A DNA stretch of 35,338 nucleotides from the NCBI GenBank assembly GCA_964372085.1, contig CAYJPQ010000001.1, positions 2,598 through 37,935 on the forward strand, in the 5' to 3' direction. Below, piece by piece: positions 22,828 to 27,708 of the stretch. Numbering within the stretch: position 1 is the stretch's first letter; each line of letters starts with the position of its first letter. The position numbers and the translations under genes are program-made. This stretch comes from an uncultured Bifidobacteriaceae bacterium. GTDB lineage: Bacteria; Acidobacteriota; Vicinamibacteria; Vicinamibacterales; UBA2999. The notes beneath the pieces were generated by a model. It was not told the origin of the DNA. It did no database searches and worked only from the letters and a program-made list of their open reading frames with translations.

Positions 22828-23879
22828 AGCGTCGGCACCTCATGCGGTGCCTTGGGTGCCTGGCGTGCCTGGTGGGCCTCGGGGTGGGTGCCGGGCGCCT
22901 CGTGCTCGCTGCCGCGCAACCGCAACGTGGCATCACGGCCGCGCCGGTCGTCGCCCGGGTTTACGACCTCATCCTCGACGCTGATTTCGATCGACTGAAG
23001 GCGGGACTGCCGGCCGCCTGCGGGCCGGCGCCGCGTGCGGCCTGCCTGGGCCTGGAGGCGCTGTCGCTCTGGTGGCAGATCCAGATCGACCCCGACAGCC
23101 GCGCGCTCGACGCGGCGTTCCTCGACAAGACCAACCAGGCCATCGCCGAGGCCGAACGCTGGAGCCGGGCCGAGCCCGAGCGGGCCGAGGCCTGGTTCTA
23201 CGTGGGCGCCGCCTACGGCGTGCGGGCGCAGTGGAAGGTCCTGCGCCGGGAGCGGCTGTCGGCGGCCCGCGACGGCAAGCGCATCAAGACGGCGCTCGAG
23301 CGCGCGCTGGCCCTCGACCCCGCGATGCACGACGCCGAGTTCGGGGTGGGCCTCTACCGGTACTACGCCGACGTGGCCCCGGCCGCGCTGAAGTTCCTGC
23401 GGTGGCTGCTGCTGTTGCCGGGCGGCAACCGCGAGGAGGGCCTCGCGCAGCTCGAACGCGCCAGCCGGCAGGGCCAGTTGGTCGGCGGCGAGGCCGCCTA
23501 CCAGATGCACGTGTTGTACCTCTGGTACGAGGACCGGTCGCGCGACGCGCTGCAGATCGTGCGCGACCTGCAGGGCCGCTACCCCCACAATCCCCTGTTC
23601 CACCACATCGAGGCCGAGGTGCGCGACGTGTACTTCCACGACCACGCCGGCAGCCTGGCGGCCTCCGAGCGGCTGCTGGCGCTCGCGCAGGCCCGACAGG
23701 TGCACCGCGCCGACATCGCCGAGGTGCGCGCGCGCCTCAACATGGCCGCGCAGCTTGACGCCCTCGGCCGGCGCGACCGCGCCCTCGCCGAGCTCGACAC
23801 GATCATCGCGCAGCGGCCGGCGGCGCCCGCGGGAGCCCTGGCCCGCGCTCGGCAGATGCGCCAGCAGATAACGCGGTGA
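22824..23879 (+). CDS. Exported TPR-like protein
   Basis: ATGA overlap with the ddl stop, N-terminal signal-like segment, and AEAWFYVGAAYG and ALALDPAMHDAEFGVGLY TPR-like motifs. Confidence 0.8.
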
Positions 23880-23880
23880 G

Positions 23881-23934
23881 GCGGGTGCATCGGGTGCATC
23901 GGGTGCATCGGGTGCATCGGGTGCAGCGGGTGCA
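23881..23934 (+). repeat. Tandem array of 6 x 9-bp units (T/G)CGGGTGCA
   Basis: Begins 1 bp after TGA23879. Same family as 1776-1937, with an identical first unit GCGGGTGCA. Confidence 0.92.
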
Positions 23935-24043
23935 GCCCCGCGCCCCTATTGACGCGCGCGGCCGCGTCCGAAAGTCTCTCTTGAAGGTGTAGAGGGATGG
24001 GCGGCGCCAGGCGGTTGGTTTGACAACCACAAACGCTTTGTGC

Positions 24044-24071
24044 TTGACAACACAAATTTCTCATCCATAAT
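24044..24071 (+). promoter_or_regulatory. Near-consensus sigma70 promoter for the micro-ORF unit
   Basis: TTGACA-N16-CATAAT in an AT-rich island. A second TTGACA lies at 24020 and a CACAAA-N3-TTTGTG palindrome at 24028-24042. Confidence 0.72.
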
Positions 24072-24175
24072 CTACATCTGGTATGAGGGTGGAAGGCTCA
24101 GGCCACTGATTGTGAACACGTAAAAACAATCAGCGGTTGCCATCAGGCAGAGTCACCCCCCATCAGGAGAGAACA

Positions 24176-24226
24176 ATGGCGAAGAAGGCAAAGAAGGCGG
24201 CGAAGAAGAAGGCCAAGAAGCGCTAG
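24176..24226 (+). CDS. 16-aa Lys/Ala-rich micropeptide MAKKAKKAAKKKAKKR
   Basis: SD AGGAG at 24165-24169, 6 nt before the ATG. A paralogous ORF lies 241 bp downstream. Below the ORF-track cutoff. Confidence 0.72.
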   Translation: MAKKAKKAAKKKAKKR

Positions 24227-24236
24227 GCCGCTTACA

Positions 24237-24270
24237 GGGGCGGTTCCTCAAAAAACTGCCCCACCCTTTT
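24237..24270 (+). terminator. Weak or partial terminator hairpin after micro-ORF 1
   Basis: GGGGCGGTT-N8-AACTGCCCC followed by ACCCTTTT (displaced U-tract). Confidence 0.45.
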
Positions 24271-24416
24271 CACCAGCAGATGGCGCGCCCGTTCCGGGCG
24301 CGCACCAAGGCGCGAGGAACGCCGGCACGCACGGAGCCGAGTGCCAGGCGGCAGGAGCTCAGACGTGGAGCGGCGAGTTCTTCCGCATAACCCAACCTGA
24401 AGGGGGGGATAGACCG

Positions 24417-24464
24417 ATGGCCAAGAAAGCAAAGAAGGCGGCGAAGAAGGCGAAGAAGCGCTAG
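24417..24464 (+). CDS. 15-aa Lys/Ala-rich micropeptide MAKKAKKAAKKAKKR
   Basis: Purine-rich SD AAGGGGGGGA about 7 nt before the ATG. Differs from copy 1 only by three synonymous changes and one missing AAG codon. Confidence 0.7.
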   Translation: MAKKAKKAAKKAKKR

Positions 24465-24484
24465 GCTTCATCAGCCAGAAGATT

Positions 24485-24517
24485 AAAGAGGGGGCGACAA
24501 CGTTCGCCCCCTTTTTT
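24485..24517. terminator. Intrinsic terminator closing the micro-ORF unit (probably bidirectional)
   Basis: AGGGGGCGA-CAACGT-TCGCCCCCT plus TTTTT. The A-rich 5' flank could serve the convergent cyclophilin gene. Confidence 0.85.
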
Positions 24518-24526
24518 AATGCCCGC

Positions 24527-26608
24527 CTACTGGCCGATCCAGTTGACGCCGTCCCACACGCGGATGCGCACGATGGTGTCCCACTGCGAGAGCCGGTCCA
24601 CGACGTCCATCCCCGACACCACCTGGCCGAACACGGTGTAGCGGCCGTCGAGGTGGGGCTGCGGCGAGTGGGTGATGAAGAACTGGCTGCCGCCGGTGTC
24701 GGCCCAGTCGAGGGCCATCCCCACGGTGCCCCGCAGGTAGGGCCGCTGGTTGATCTCGTCGCGAATCGTGTAGCCGGGCCCGCCCTCGCCGTCGCCGCGC
24801 GGGTCGCCGTCCTGCACCACGAAGTCGGGCACCACCCGGTGCAGGCTCACGCCGTTGAAGTAGCCCTTGCGCGCCAGCGCGATGAAGTTGGCCACGGTGC
24901 GCGGCGCGTCGATCACCGCCAGCTCGAACTGCACCGTGCCCTTCGCCGTGTCGATATAGGCGGCCGGCGAATAGGGCGGCGCCACGAAGAGGTCCACCTC
25001 CGCCAGTTCGGGCAGCGCCGGCGCCGGCGCGGGGCGCATCGCCGAGGTGTCGGCGGCGGCGTCGATGCCGCGCAGCAGCTCTGCGGCCTTCAGGCGCACC
25101 GCCCAGTCCTTGTCGGCGAGCGCTGTGGCGAGCACGGGCTTCGCCCGCGCCGGATCCACCGCCGCCAGCGCCTCGAGCGCCGCCGCGCGCGCCACGTACA
25201 GCCCGTCGCTGGCCGCCCGCGTCACGGCGATCTCCAGCGCCTGCGCCGCGCCGGCCGGCCTGACCACGGCCAGGCCCCGGGCCGCCGCCGCCCGCACCAC
25301 CGGATCGTCACTCGCCAGCCGCTCGTGCAGCGCCGCCGCCGCGTTCGAGGCCCCCACCTTCGCCAGCGCCGCCAGCACCGACGGAATCACCCGCTGGTCG
25401 CCGTCGCGCAGCATGCTCGTCAGCGGCGCCTCGGCGCGCGCCTTCCCCATCTCGCCCACGGAGGTGGCCAGCGCCGCCCGCACCGACCAGTGCGGGTCGG
25501 GATCGAGCCCTGAGATGGCCGTCACGAACGTGTCCACGTCGGCCCGCATCAGCCCCGTCAGCGCCGCCGCCCGGATCGACGGCGACGGGGCCGACGCCAG
25601 GTCGATCAGCAGATCGACCGACCCGGCCGGGCGCAACGCGCCGAGCGCCGTGAGGGCCTCCAGCTGGAGGTTGGCCTCCACCTTCGGGGCGGTGACGATA
25701 CGCGTGAGAACGGCGCCAGCGCGGGCCTCCCCGAGCGCGGCCAGCGCGCGAATGGCCTGGATGCGGACTGCTTGCGGCTCGGCGGCGTCGCCGGCGATGG
25801 TGAGCATCGGCGCCGCGGCGCGCGGCTCCTTCAGTGCCGCGAGGCCCCGGGCCGCGAACGCGCGCGTCAGTTGTCCCTCGCCCTGCAGCAGCGCCAGCAG
25901 CACCGGCGCGGCCTTGGGGTCGCCAACCCGCTGGAAGGCGTAGGCCAGCGGCCACCAGCGGGTGCGCGGCTGGCCGGCGGAGTCGAGCAGGCTCGAGGCC
26001 AGCGCGTCGTAGCTGCCCAACCGCACCAGCGCGTAGGCGCCCAGCCGCACCGCCTCGAGGGCGGCGCTCTTCGGGTAGCCCATGTCGTCGGCGTCGAGGC
26101 CGTTCAGCGCGCCGGCGGCGATGTGTCCCGACATCATCGTGGCGATGGCCGTGGCCGCGGGCTTGTGCCCGACCTGCCCCAGGGCCTCGGCCGCGCGCGC
26201 ATGGACGATCGGGTCGGGGTCGGCCAGCGCGGCCAGCAACGGATCGGCGGCCGACGGGTGGCCGATGAGCCCCAGCGCGAACGCGGCCATCTGCCTCACT
26301 TCGGGATCGGCCTCGGTGGAGAGGAGCGCGCCGAGCGGCGCCACGCCCTCGGCCATGCGCACGCGGCCCAGCGCCAGGGCGGCCCGGCGCCTGACGCGGG
26401 CCTCGGGGTCCTGCAGCAGCGCCACCAGGTCCACGCCCCCCGCCCGCAAGTGGCGCTCGTCTTCAAGGCGCAGCAGGGCCCGCATCTTCTGCTCGTAGCC
26501 CGCCAGGGGCGCGGCGCCCGACACCTGGGGCGCGGCCTGGGGCCCGCACCCGGCGGCCGCGACCGCCGCCAGGAGCACGGCACAGACGCAACGCTCGAAT
26601 GGGATCAT
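24527..26608 (-). CDS. HEAT-repeat lipoprotein with a C-terminal cyclophilin-type peptidyl-prolyl isomerase domain
   Basis: ATG26608 overlaps the menC stop (ATGA). Lipobox-like AAG|C, multiple VRxxAAxALG HEAT repeats, and HRVVPDFVVQDGDP...GTVGMA...GGSQFFIT...HLDGRYTVFG. Confidence 0.92.
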   Translation of the reverse strand: MIPFERCVCAVLLAAVAAAGCGPQAAPQVSGAAPLAGYEQKMRALLRLEDERHLRAGGVDLVALLQDPEARVRRRAALALGRVRMAEGVAPLGALLSTEADPEVRQMAAFALGLIGHPSAADPLLAALADPDPIVHARAAEALGQVGHKPAATAIATMMSGHIAAGALNGLDADDMGYPKSAALEAVRLGAYALVRLGSYDALASSLLDSAGQPRTRWWPLAYAFQRVGDPKAAPVLLALLQGEGQLTRAFAARGLAALKEPRAAAPMLTIAGDAAEPQAVRIQAIRALAALGEARAGAVLTRIVTAPKVEANLQLEALTALGALRPAGSVDLLIDLASAPSPSIRAAALTGLMRADVDTFVTAISGLDPDPHWSVRAALATSVGEMGKARAEAPLTSMLRDGDQRVIPSVLAALAKVGASNAAAALHERLASDDPVVRAAAARGLAVVRPAGAAQALEIAVTRAASDGLYVARAAALEALAAVDPARAKPVLATALADKDWAVRLKAAELLRGIDAAADTSAMRPAPAPALPELAEVDLFVAPPYSPAAYIDTAKGTVQFELAVIDAPRTVANFIALARKGYFNGVSLHRVVPDFVVQDGDPRGDGEGGPGYTIRDEINQRPYLRGTVGMALDWADTGGSQFFITHSPQPHLDGRYTVFGQVVSGMDVVDRLSQWDTIVRIRVWDGVNWIGQ

Positions 26609-27708
26609 AGGCTGATGTGGCGCAGCGTCGCCTGCGCGATGCGGTCCCGTACGATGTTGACCCCGATGCCGGGGCCGTCTGGCACGGCGATGGTCCCGTC
26701 GGCAGCCACCTCGATGGCCGGCTCGATCAGGTCGGGCTGGTAGTACCGCTTGCTGGCCGCGATGTCGCCGGGCAGGCTGAAGTTGGGCAGGCTGGCCAGA
26801 TGGATGTTGTGCGCGCGGCCAATGCCGCTTTCGAGCATGCCGCCGTGCCACACGGGGATCCCGCTCGCGGCGCACAGGTCGTGCAGCTCGATGGACGCCT
26901 GGTGGCCGCCCACCCGACCCGGCTTGATGTTGATGATGCGGCAGGCCCTGGCGGCAATGGCGTCGCGCGCGATGCGCACGGTGTGGATCGACTCGTCCAG
27001 GCAGATGGGCGTCTTGATGGCCCGCTGCAACTCCGCATGATCCATCACATCGTCATAATCCAGCGGCTGCTCGATCATCATCAGGTTGTAGGGATCGAGC
27101 CGCGCGAGGTGGGCCGCGTCCGACAGGTGGTAGGCCGCGTTGGCGTCGACCATCAGCGGCACGGCGGGGTGCGTGGCGCGCACGCGCTCCACGGCCTCGA
27201 CGTCCCAGCCGGGCTTGATCTTGATCTTGATGCGCTGGTAGCCGGCGGCCAGCTCGCGATCCACCTTCTCCATCAACTGATCGAGCGAATCCTGGATGCC
27301 GATGGACACGCCCGACGCGATGCGGGGCCGGGTGCCGCCGAGCACACGCGACAGGGGTTGGCCGGCCAGGCGGGCGTACAGGTCCCACGCGGCCATCTCG
27401 ATCCCGGCCTTGGCCATGTTGTGGCCGCGCACGCGCGCCATCGCCGGGAACACCTCGCGGGGATGGCCGAACTCGCGCCCGATGACCAGCGGGGCCAGGA
27501 AGCCCGACACGATGTGCCAGACGGTTTCGGTGGTCTCGCTGCTGTAGTAGGGATTGGCCTCGGCCACCGACTCGCCCCAGCCTTCGTGGCCGCCGCCCTC
27601 GACGCGCACCAGCACGAAGGTGCGATCGTACGAGCGGCCGAAGCTGGTTTCGAAGAAGTGGACGAGGGGCAGCCGGCAGAGGAACAGCTCGACCTTGTCG
27701 ATTCGCAT
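26605..27708 (-). CDS. menC: o-Succinylbenzoate synthase / N-acyl(succinyl)amino-acid racemase (enolase superfamily)
   Basis: FETSFG, KIKIKPG, MVDANAAY, IEQP, LDESI, NIKPGRVGG and WHGGMLESGIGRA. Start trimmed to MRIDKVEL. Confidence 0.88.
   Translation of the reverse strand: MRIDKVELFLCRLPLVHFFETSFGRSYDRTFVLVRVEGGGHEGWGESVAEANPYYSSETTETVWHIVSGFLAPLVIGREFGHPREVFPAMARVRGHNMAKAGIEMAAWDLYARLAGQPLSRVLGGTRPRIASGVSIGIQDSLDQLMEKVDRELAAGYQRIKIKIKPGWDVEAVERVRATHPAVPLMVDANAAYHLSDAAHLARLDPYNLMMIEQPLDYDDVMDHAELQRAIKTPICLDESIHTVRIARDAIAARACRIINIKPGRVGGHQASIELHDLCAASGIPVWHGGMLESGIGRAHNIHLASLPNFSLPGDIAASKRYYQPDLIEPAIEVAADGTIAVPDGPGIGVNIVRDRIAQATLRHISL

Follow-up and report, generated by a model that had tools for sequence, protein, structure and literature searches.

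Can two open reading frames (ORFs) that code for only 16 and 15 residues be genes in their own right, and what would such small products do? The question is raised by a 35,338-nucleotide (nt) stretch of DNA, called the window here, in which 647 base pairs (bp) separate two convergent genes ending at 23879 (+ strand) and 24527 (- strand). The gap holds a micro-ORF unit that consists, in order, of a sigma-70 promoter, a leader of about 97 nt, ORF1, a hairpin, ORF2 and an intrinsic terminator. Both ORFs are unannotated, and the encoded peptides are almost purely lysine and alanine. The first-pass annotation of this DNA had listed a promoter, a leader, Shine-Dalgarno (SD) sites, the ORFs, a hairpin and a terminator, and all of them are present at the coordinates of Table 1. 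Its proposal that the two micro-ORFs are paralogues under selection, in a transcription unit of their own, is borne out by the unit's own promoter and terminator and by the codon-level selection described below.

Selection on the two micro-ORFs

ORF1 and ORF2 differ by three synonymous changes (GCG/GCC, AAG/AAA and GCC/GCG) and one whole Lys codon, exactly as had been claimed. In a repeat search, the two copies were 88% identical over 43 nt, including 10 nt ahead of the ATG. A degenerate 33-nt pattern for MAKKAKKAAKK, with up to two mismatches allowed, had two matches in the window compared with 0.00 in 100 shuffles, and in the genome as a whole (3.95 Mb, 68.5% guanine plus cytosine [GC]) it matched at ORF1 and ORF2 only. 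Comparably dense Lys/Ala 12-mers were found in only five reading-frame segments genome-wide.

We then compared the unit among relatives. By record titles the window belongs to the order Vicinamibacterales; numbers with f, G and L denote the families, genomes and loci of this analysis. Units were picked by a regular expression for the promoter, which yielded 126 distinct complete units, 114 with two ORFs and 12 with one; a one-ORF unit, L055, retains a degraded Lys-rich frame. Since the ORFs were picked by an MAKK-type start and a content of at least 60% Lys, Ala or Arg, counts at the N terminus are circular and counts at other positions are not. This gave 179 distinct ORF nucleotide sequences, and the two-ORF units encode 37 different peptides as ORF1 and 36 as ORF2.

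The codons of these ORFs varied in the manner of coding sequence. Among the 167 sequences from two-ORF units, Lys was encoded 1,405 times by AAG and 119 times by AAA, and AAC and AAT did not occur at all. The last residue was always Arg, for which all six codons were used, or Lys (CGC, 64; CGG, 64; CGT, 11; AGA, 11; CGA, 4; AGG, 1; and AAG, 24, in the 179 ORFs), while Ala at position 2 was encoded by all four of its codons (GCG, 114; GCA, 39; GCT, 16; GCC, 10). The stop codon was TAA in 112 ORFs, TAG in 67 and TGA in none. The ORFs ranged from 14 to 35 residues, so that every change in length was in frame, and no frameshifted homologue was seen among the 179. The SD/ATG/stop frame is conserved in relatives and RNA contigs lie over the ORFs, in keeping with what the first-pass annotation had expected of real genes.

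The most telling comparison was between two distant loci. L237 (genome G597, locus GC of 69%) and L214 (genome G438, which belongs to another class, locus GC of 47%) encode an identical 17-mer behind the same SD. The two genes differ at 12 of 54 nt, and all 12 differences fall at third codon positions. We judge the 17-mer, together with the six-codon Arg, to be decisive evidence that ORF1 and ORF2 are under selection for their amino acid sequence, and on these comparative grounds both ORFs are real coding genes.

It could be argued that the unit is a non-coding small RNA in which the ORFs are incidental. Its size, promoter and terminator are like those of a small RNA, and a search of Rfam 15 returned eight matches at E values up to 10, the best being Xoo2 (28.8 against a threshold of 45) over the end of ORF2 and the terminator. 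None of the eight reached the gathering threshold, however, and divergence confined to third positions, six Arg codons, the complete lack of AAC and AAT codons and a conserved SD/ATG/stop frame would not be expected of a non-coding RNA. We therefore consider this explanation highly improbable.

Distribution and origin of the unit

Within the genus, the exact peptide pattern was found in 21 of 24 other genomes. Across the order, a BLASTN search with 24030-24520 found the unit, in single copy, in 185 of 201 genomes. Distant families aligned over query positions 8-199 (promoter, leader and ORF1) and 369-488 (the SD of ORF2 [SD2], ORF2 and the terminator) and did not align over the spacer. The earlier statement that the flanks of the ORFs had diverged was correct for the spacer, which varies beyond the family, and incorrect for the G-rich SD, the promoter and the first part of the leader, which are better conserved than the ORFs themselves.

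The position of the unit was also conserved. In 128 distinct loci, the gene for a HEAT-cyclophilin protein was both downstream and convergent in 117, and ddl was upstream in 89; the neighborhood proposed at first, from ddl or an unknown gene to the HEAT-cyclophilin gene, thus holds in 117 of 128 loci. In five or six of the 128 loci (L138, L143, L167, L184 and L052), the unit stands in the opposite orientation at its usual site, with the same neighbors on either side, which identifies it as an autonomous module.

Record titles among at least 119 matching stretches, 80 of them listed, named Vicinamibacterales, Vicinamibacteria or Acidobacteriota metagenome-assembled genomes (MAGs). Seven records (L093, L101, L136, L126, L161, L129 and L115) were titled otherwise: one as a cyanobacterium, two as Acidimicrobiia, two as Bifidobacterium or Bifidobacteriaceae, one as Thermoleophilaceae and one as "uncultured bacterium." Spread of the unit to other phyla was considered for these records and rejected, since all seven share the ORF/SD context, five of seven share the promoter block, and their GC content is 64 to 72%. 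On this likeness, the MAG records are probably mislabeled or mis-binned.

Outside the order, a pattern for MAKK...KKR peptides had no match in 41 genomes of sister orders, and absence from those orders would have been the wrong conclusion. At the syntenic site, the sister orders of the class proved to have just one gene, of the form MAAKK...KKKK, which is preceded by the same GAAAGGGGGGAT G-rich site and by a different promoter; in three of five sister-order genomes, it stands beside the HEAT-cyclophilin orthologue. A strict pattern of SD plus start was matched in 16 of 67 genomes from other orders of the class (f20, 10 of 26; f109, 4 of 6; f107, 1 of 1; f110, 1 of 4; f105, 0 of 1), with peptides of 14 to 24 residues. 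Two of these loci, L233 (G609) and L236 (G638), have tandem pairs of their own about 165 nt apart, with both genes behind G-run SDs, and these pairs are independent of the duplication in the window's order. In the other class, G438 has the same arrangement at a locus GC of 47%, with its own TTGACA-17-TATATT promoter and terminator, and was the only match among the 81 genomes searched in that class. The gene with the G-rich SD looks ancestral, since it occurs by itself in sister orders and in one other class; ORF1 and the promoter block appear to have arisen by duplication and innovation inside the window's order.

The convergent neighbor in the window (24527-26875, - strand) encodes a HEAT-repeat and cyclophilin fusion with a lipoprotein-like N terminus, and the micro-gene adjoins this gene in sister orders, too. 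In G438, the micro-gene adjoins a divergently oriented cyclophilin gene whose product has a signal-peptide-like N terminus. The adjacency could reflect a functional linkage or old synteny. A further explanation is that the peptides are exported cations with a role at the envelope or against competitors, and the N termini of the two cyclophilins would speak for it. The peptides themselves, however, have no signal sequence or hydrophobic face, a Pfam scan of four neighbors on each side found no transporter or maturation gene, and the neighbors are not cotranscribed with the unit, being convergent here and divergent in G438. We give export the least credence of all the explanations considered.

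Promoter, leader and transcripts

The TTGACA-16-CATAAT promoter matches the consensus at 11 of 12 positions and is the sole promoter-like site in 23500-25000 (shuffles, 0.1 +/- 0.2), and transcription would start at about 24078 to 24080. Genome-wide, 14 near-consensus promoters were found, among which those of the unit and of dnaK stand closest to the consensus. Of 36 other genomes from the order, 24 had the exact promoter pattern, once each; none of 364 genomes in the remainder of the phylum had it. In the order-wide BLASTN search, the promoter block was the best-conserved part of the unit (query 7-77, 83 to 95% identity).

Table 1. Features of the micro-ORF unit, in window coordinates
Feature	Position	Strand	Details
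Conserved promoter block	24036-24092	+	-35 TTGACA 24044-24049, 16-bp spacer, -10 CATAAT 24066-24071, initial transcribed bases
Structured 5' leader	24079-24175	+	closing helix between the 5' end and the C-rich tract before/into SD1
Inner parts of the leader		+	helix GCUC:GAGU; hairpin 24103-24136; small hairpin GCCAUCAGGC
SD1 (SD of ORF1)	24165-24169	+	AGGAG
ORF1	24176-24226	+	ATG...TAG, MAKKAKKAAKKKAKKR*, 16 residues, 10 of them basic
Inter-ORF spacer	24227-24399	+	conserved within genus and family only
Hairpin 3' of ORF1	24237-24262 (with ACCCTTTTC, to 24271)	+	GGGGCGGTT/AACTGCCCC, then ACCCTTTTC
Extended G-rich SD of ORF2	24400-24410	+	AAGGGGGGGAT; kept across the order
ORF2	24417-24464	+	ATG...TAG, MAKKAKKAAKKAKKR*, 15 residues, 9 of them basic
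Intrinsic terminator	24485-24517	both	stem 24490-24497/24504-24511, loop CAACGT, T6 24512-24517

A second TTGACAAC is found in 24015-24055, 24 bp ahead of the -35 element and within a 19-nt inverted repeat. This upstream TTGACAAC was seen in most genus loci whose extract extends that far, and TTGACA also stands at the same position in L003, the single locus from another family in the alignment. The site may bind a regulator.

The leader appears to be structured. RNAalifold was run at the family level, on 27 of the 111 distinct leaders, and it should be kept in mind that the fold was derived from the same alignment on which it was scored, which favors it. The fold has 25 pairs in four helices, and 96.4% of the alignment cells were paired, compared with 39 to 49% when the partners were slid. 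The covariation score was 0.209, compared with at most 0.054, and none of 500 shuffles attained 0.209; five pairs change on both sides, all within one helix. Order-wide, RNAalifold on 40 of the 111 distinct leaders, which align poorly in the middle, recovered only an invariant 4-bp hairpin.

At its far end, the unit shares its terminator with the convergent HEAT-cyclophilin gene. The terminator is bidirectional, with nine pairs, seven of them GC, predicted on the - strand; the letters of its stem vary among genomes and its pairing is kept. A terminator-like element follows ORF2 in 93 of 114 two-ORF units. A terminator-like hairpin with a T-run also lies within 70 nt past ORF1 in 47 of the 114, and the hairpin 3' of ORF1 in the window is a weak and perhaps partial terminator. 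The G-rich SD is rare in the window's own genome, in which its pattern has 12 matches.

On the other hand, the RNA rather than the peptides could be the product that matters, the peptides being by-products and translation of the Lys-dense codons controlling the structure or stability of a trans-acting RNA or sensing lysyl-tRNA or translation capacity. The structured and conserved leader would fit such a role, as would the fold of the whole RNA (-183.2 kcal/mol, compared with -150.1 +/- 5.1 for shuffles; z = -6.55) and the near invariance of the ORF1 nucleotides within the genus. In addition, the initiation region of ORF1 (24156-24186, which includes a C-run, the SD and the ATG) is complementary to 24378-24407, which precedes SD2 and reaches into it, in blocks of 12 and 11 nt that also pair in the minimum-free-energy fold. 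This pairing is strong only within the window's family, and there it could link the translation of ORF1 to that of ORF2. Order-wide, the two initiation regions showed no covariation, with cognate pairs (-16.7 kcal/mol) having no advantage over cross pairs (-15.4 kcal/mol), and the idea of a conserved switch was dropped. The spacer is unconserved outside the family, and past the terminator there is no downstream gene to regulate, the next gene being convergent. Attenuator leader peptides, which likewise have 14 to 16 codons, one enriched residue and adjoining hairpins and a terminator, differ from the present case in this respect: here ORF2 is followed by the terminator and then by a convergent gene, the same holds in 117 of 128 loci, and the peptide itself is selected. 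A codon sensor would also need neither selection of a six-codon C-terminal Arg nor a whole 17-mer kept across classes. We consider a regulatory RNA of this kind improbable, and the peptides remain in our view the products under selection.

Transcripts of the unit were found in public RNA data. Thirteen runs on record as RNA, within a set of 20 runs from 14 studies, contained 0.33 to 0.43 of the sampled words, and cover was taken from 4 of 23 listed runs, each from a different study. Contigs with one difference from the window covered 24156-24439 (run X2), 24172-24440 and 24095-24179 (X1), and 24160-24409 (X5). None of the four runs had any depth over 23937-24081 or 24488-24574, so that the promoter was uncovered, and the flanking genes were covered by diverged contigs only, in X3. 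These uncovered parts serve as a contrast to the covered unit and not as proof of silence. Since contaminating DNA would also cover the flanks, the unit appears to be transcribed above its neighbors. The promoter, the SD and the presence of the unit in small metatranscriptomes together suggested high expression.

Over the ORFs, the depth in a wastewater metatranscriptome (runs X3 and X5) reached 300 to 500 from other Lys/Ala-coding contigs, some of which have unrelated leaders directly ahead of the ATG-GCC-AAG start. Similar micro-genes, or genes with Lys/Ala tails, may be strongly expressed in other organisms.

Possible roles of the peptides

Searches of protein families and collections returned little. 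Profile tests used the six longest of the 73 distinct peptides. No Pfam family was matched at its cutoff; one of the six variants matched HC2 (PF07382) at 16.6 bits against a cutoff of 40, and the other five matched nothing. No NCBIfam family reached its cutoff either (HC2, NF038052, 12.6 bits against 135), and no ribosomal protein family in Pfam or NCBIfam was matched at E values up to 10. The prediction that gene callers would miss these genes proved right: none of nine variants of at least 20 residues was present in a collection of 15 billion proteins, and the ESM Atlas contains one 35-residue variant. The clusters nearest to it are unnamed "hypothetical proteins" of 30 to 45 residues, and the nearest named cluster is HC2, a family found in 21% of the cluster. 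Protein-level searches are uninformative for sequences this short and of such low complexity: six-frame matching of a 28-residue variant gave weak matches in 3 of 61 genomes and missed the window's own genome; a HMMER search with the 35-residue variant had no hits among 1.84 billion representatives and is likewise uninformative about relatives. No paper was found for the peptide strings, nor for stand-alone Lys/Ala micro-peptides or the unit's RNA in a literature search of titles and the openings of abstracts.

The composition of the peptides is familiar from larger proteins. Chlamydial H1-like Hc1 and Hc2 are, like the micro-peptides, Lys/Ala-dominated polycations of low complexity and are the only family with any signal, but Hc2 has about 200 residues (profile length, 194) compared with 14 to 35 here, and the HC2 score is far below its cutoff. 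The C terminus of mycobacterial HupB is a Lys/Ala-rich tail. The window's own genome encodes a 103-residue SWIB/MDM2-domain protein (G000:C31, L226:80-388) that starts MAKKTAKKAAKKPAKKKAAKRK and has a 22-residue Lys/Ala tail and an opening like MAKK...AKK, and its ribosomal protein bL31 (G000:C99, L227:52-354) ends in a Lys/Ala tail. AlgP is described as a histone H1-like protein tied to polyphosphate granules (10.1101/2021.08.24.457604). The tails of the SWIB protein, bL31, AlgP and HupB have the same composition as the micro-peptides but are tethered to a folded, targeting domain, whereas in the micro-genes the tail is the entire gene product. Lys/Ala polycation domains are thus a known kind, as are tiny basic ribosomal proteins; what is new is a conserved stand-alone Lys/Ala gene of 14 to 35 codons that occurs in tandem and has a conserved promoter, leader and G-run ribosome-binding site to itself.

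In eukaryotes, the C-terminal tail of H1 neutralizes the charge of nucleic acids through dense basic groups, and protamines and polyamines do the same. They differ from the micro-peptides in origin and size, and polyamines are made by enzymes. We hold with moderate confidence that the micro-peptides are free polycations resembling an H1 tail or a protamine, which would bind and charge-neutralize polyanions, nucleic acid first. The near-consensus sigma-70 promoter would start an autonomous messenger RNA (mRNA) of about 440 nt, and the structured leader, by closing the 5' end onto the tract before SD1, would probably stabilize the RNA and tune initiation. ORF1 would be read from AGGAG and ORF2 from the extended G-rich AAGGGGGGGAU, and the bidirectional terminator would end the mRNA. 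The initiator Met would be removed, as Ala at position 2 suggests, leaving oligocations of +10 (ORF1) and +9 (ORF2) that would bind the nucleoid, ribosomal RNA (rRNA) or both. The anatomy of the unit, its conservation across the class, selection on the peptides and the presence of its RNA in RNA libraries are shown here; peptide production, Met loss, abundance, charge-based action and the binding target are all inferred. The Lys/Ala segments on the SWIB-domain protein and on bL31 make DNA and the ribosome both plausible as targets. A bulk, H1-tail-like role is favored by the composition, by the variable length and copy number and by the apparent dispensability of the unit in families f10, f106 and f108. 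A toxin of type I, which would be hydrophobic and span the membrane, does not resemble these products: the peptides of the window contain only Met, Ala, Lys and Arg, and those of relatives contain occasional Thr, Gly, Ser, Val and Pro.

The main rival to a bulk polycation is a dedicated ribosomal or ribosome-associated micro-protein bound at a defined rRNA site. There is precedent in bS22 and bL37, which are reported to be tiny basic ribosomal proteins of stand-alone genes, found in other phyla only by cryo-electron microscopy and long unannotated; bTHX and eL41 are further examples. Like the micro-peptides, bS22 and bL37 are very small, very basic and missed by annotation. The identical 17-mer across two classes, with synonymous changes only, the very strong promoter, the very long SD and the Lys/Ala tail on bL31 of the same genome are also consistent with such a role. 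However, bS22 and bL37 have a fixed, information-rich sequence and a fixed copy number, whereas within one order the micro-peptides vary in number (one or two) and in length (14 to 35 residues), and most of the f10, f106 and f108 genomes searched gave no unit. The micro-peptides are also of low complexity, without the Arg, aromatic and His residues that are typical of such proteins, and they match no ribosomal family in Pfam or NCBIfam. A dedicated ribosomal protein is possible but unlikely.

Several observations nevertheless weigh against free polycations that act in bulk. In f10, BLASTN matches were found in 5 of 16 genomes and not in the other 11, the unit was missing from the syntenic site in all five f10 genomes examined, and one f10 genome has a single gene of 29 residues; the strict SD-plus-start pattern was matched in none of 21 f106 and none of 8 f108 genomes. 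The unit's absence from much of these three families would make it dispensable or replaceable, although diverged copies may lie elsewhere. An exact 17-mer shared by two classes is more easily explained by a specific binding site than by a bulk counter-ion. The nucleotides of ORF1 are nearly invariant within the genus, which implies that constraint acts at the RNA level, too. Translation is deduced from evolution, and the RNA evidence consists of contigs, which carry no information on transcript ends, strand or level. A free 15-mer might be degraded quickly in the cell. Finally, the genome has four HU/IHF matches and polyamine-type genes (of the spermidine synthase and the Orn/Arg decarboxylase types), which leave no evident gap to fill. 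A replacement for missing polyamines or HU was rejected on this account, both gene sets being present, and the suggestion of a polyamine analogue gains nothing from gene content.

A broader form of the polycation reading can be put forward only tentatively. Vicinamibacteria may encode, as ordinary ribosomal products, free and abundant oligolysine-like counter-ions of 14 to 35 residues, in effect an H1 tail or protamine reduced to a micro-gene. The number and length of the genes would set the dose, DNA, ribosomes or polyphosphate would be compacted or protected, and the genes would be the tip of a wider unannotated class, a view that we hold with somewhat less than even confidence. The wider class is suggested by the unnamed 30- to 45-residue look-alikes in the ESM Atlas and by the other Lys/Ala-coding RNAs in the metatranscriptomes.

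If the unit is what it appears to be, few conserved stand-alone bacterial genes for proteins would be as small as its ORFs, and a gene class that length cutoffs make invisible to annotation pipelines would occur in a lineage abundant in soil, freshwater and wastewater. Six-codon Arg, divergence at third positions only and a 22-point GC gap indicate that micro-ORFs of about 15 codons can be proved coding by comparative genomics alone. Should the peptides bind DNA or ribosomes, they would represent a novel type of nucleoid- or ribosome-associated factor and offer a minimal system, open to genetics, in which to study how charge compacts or stabilizes nucleic acids. The promoter block, the leader and the G-run ribosome-binding site would also provide ready strong expression signals for Acidobacteriota, for which genetic tools are scarce.

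Some minor features of the window remain to be mentioned. A search of the window for transfer RNA genes found none. An antisense ORF of 79 residues at 24232-24471 was rejected as not conserved, the longest antisense frames being 46 to 161 residues and differing among 20 genus units. Directly past the stop of the upstream gene, at 23883-23935, lies a 9-nt tandem repeat of GGGTGCATC, then GGGTGCAGC, in about six copies, which had weak, diverged cover in two metatranscriptome runs.

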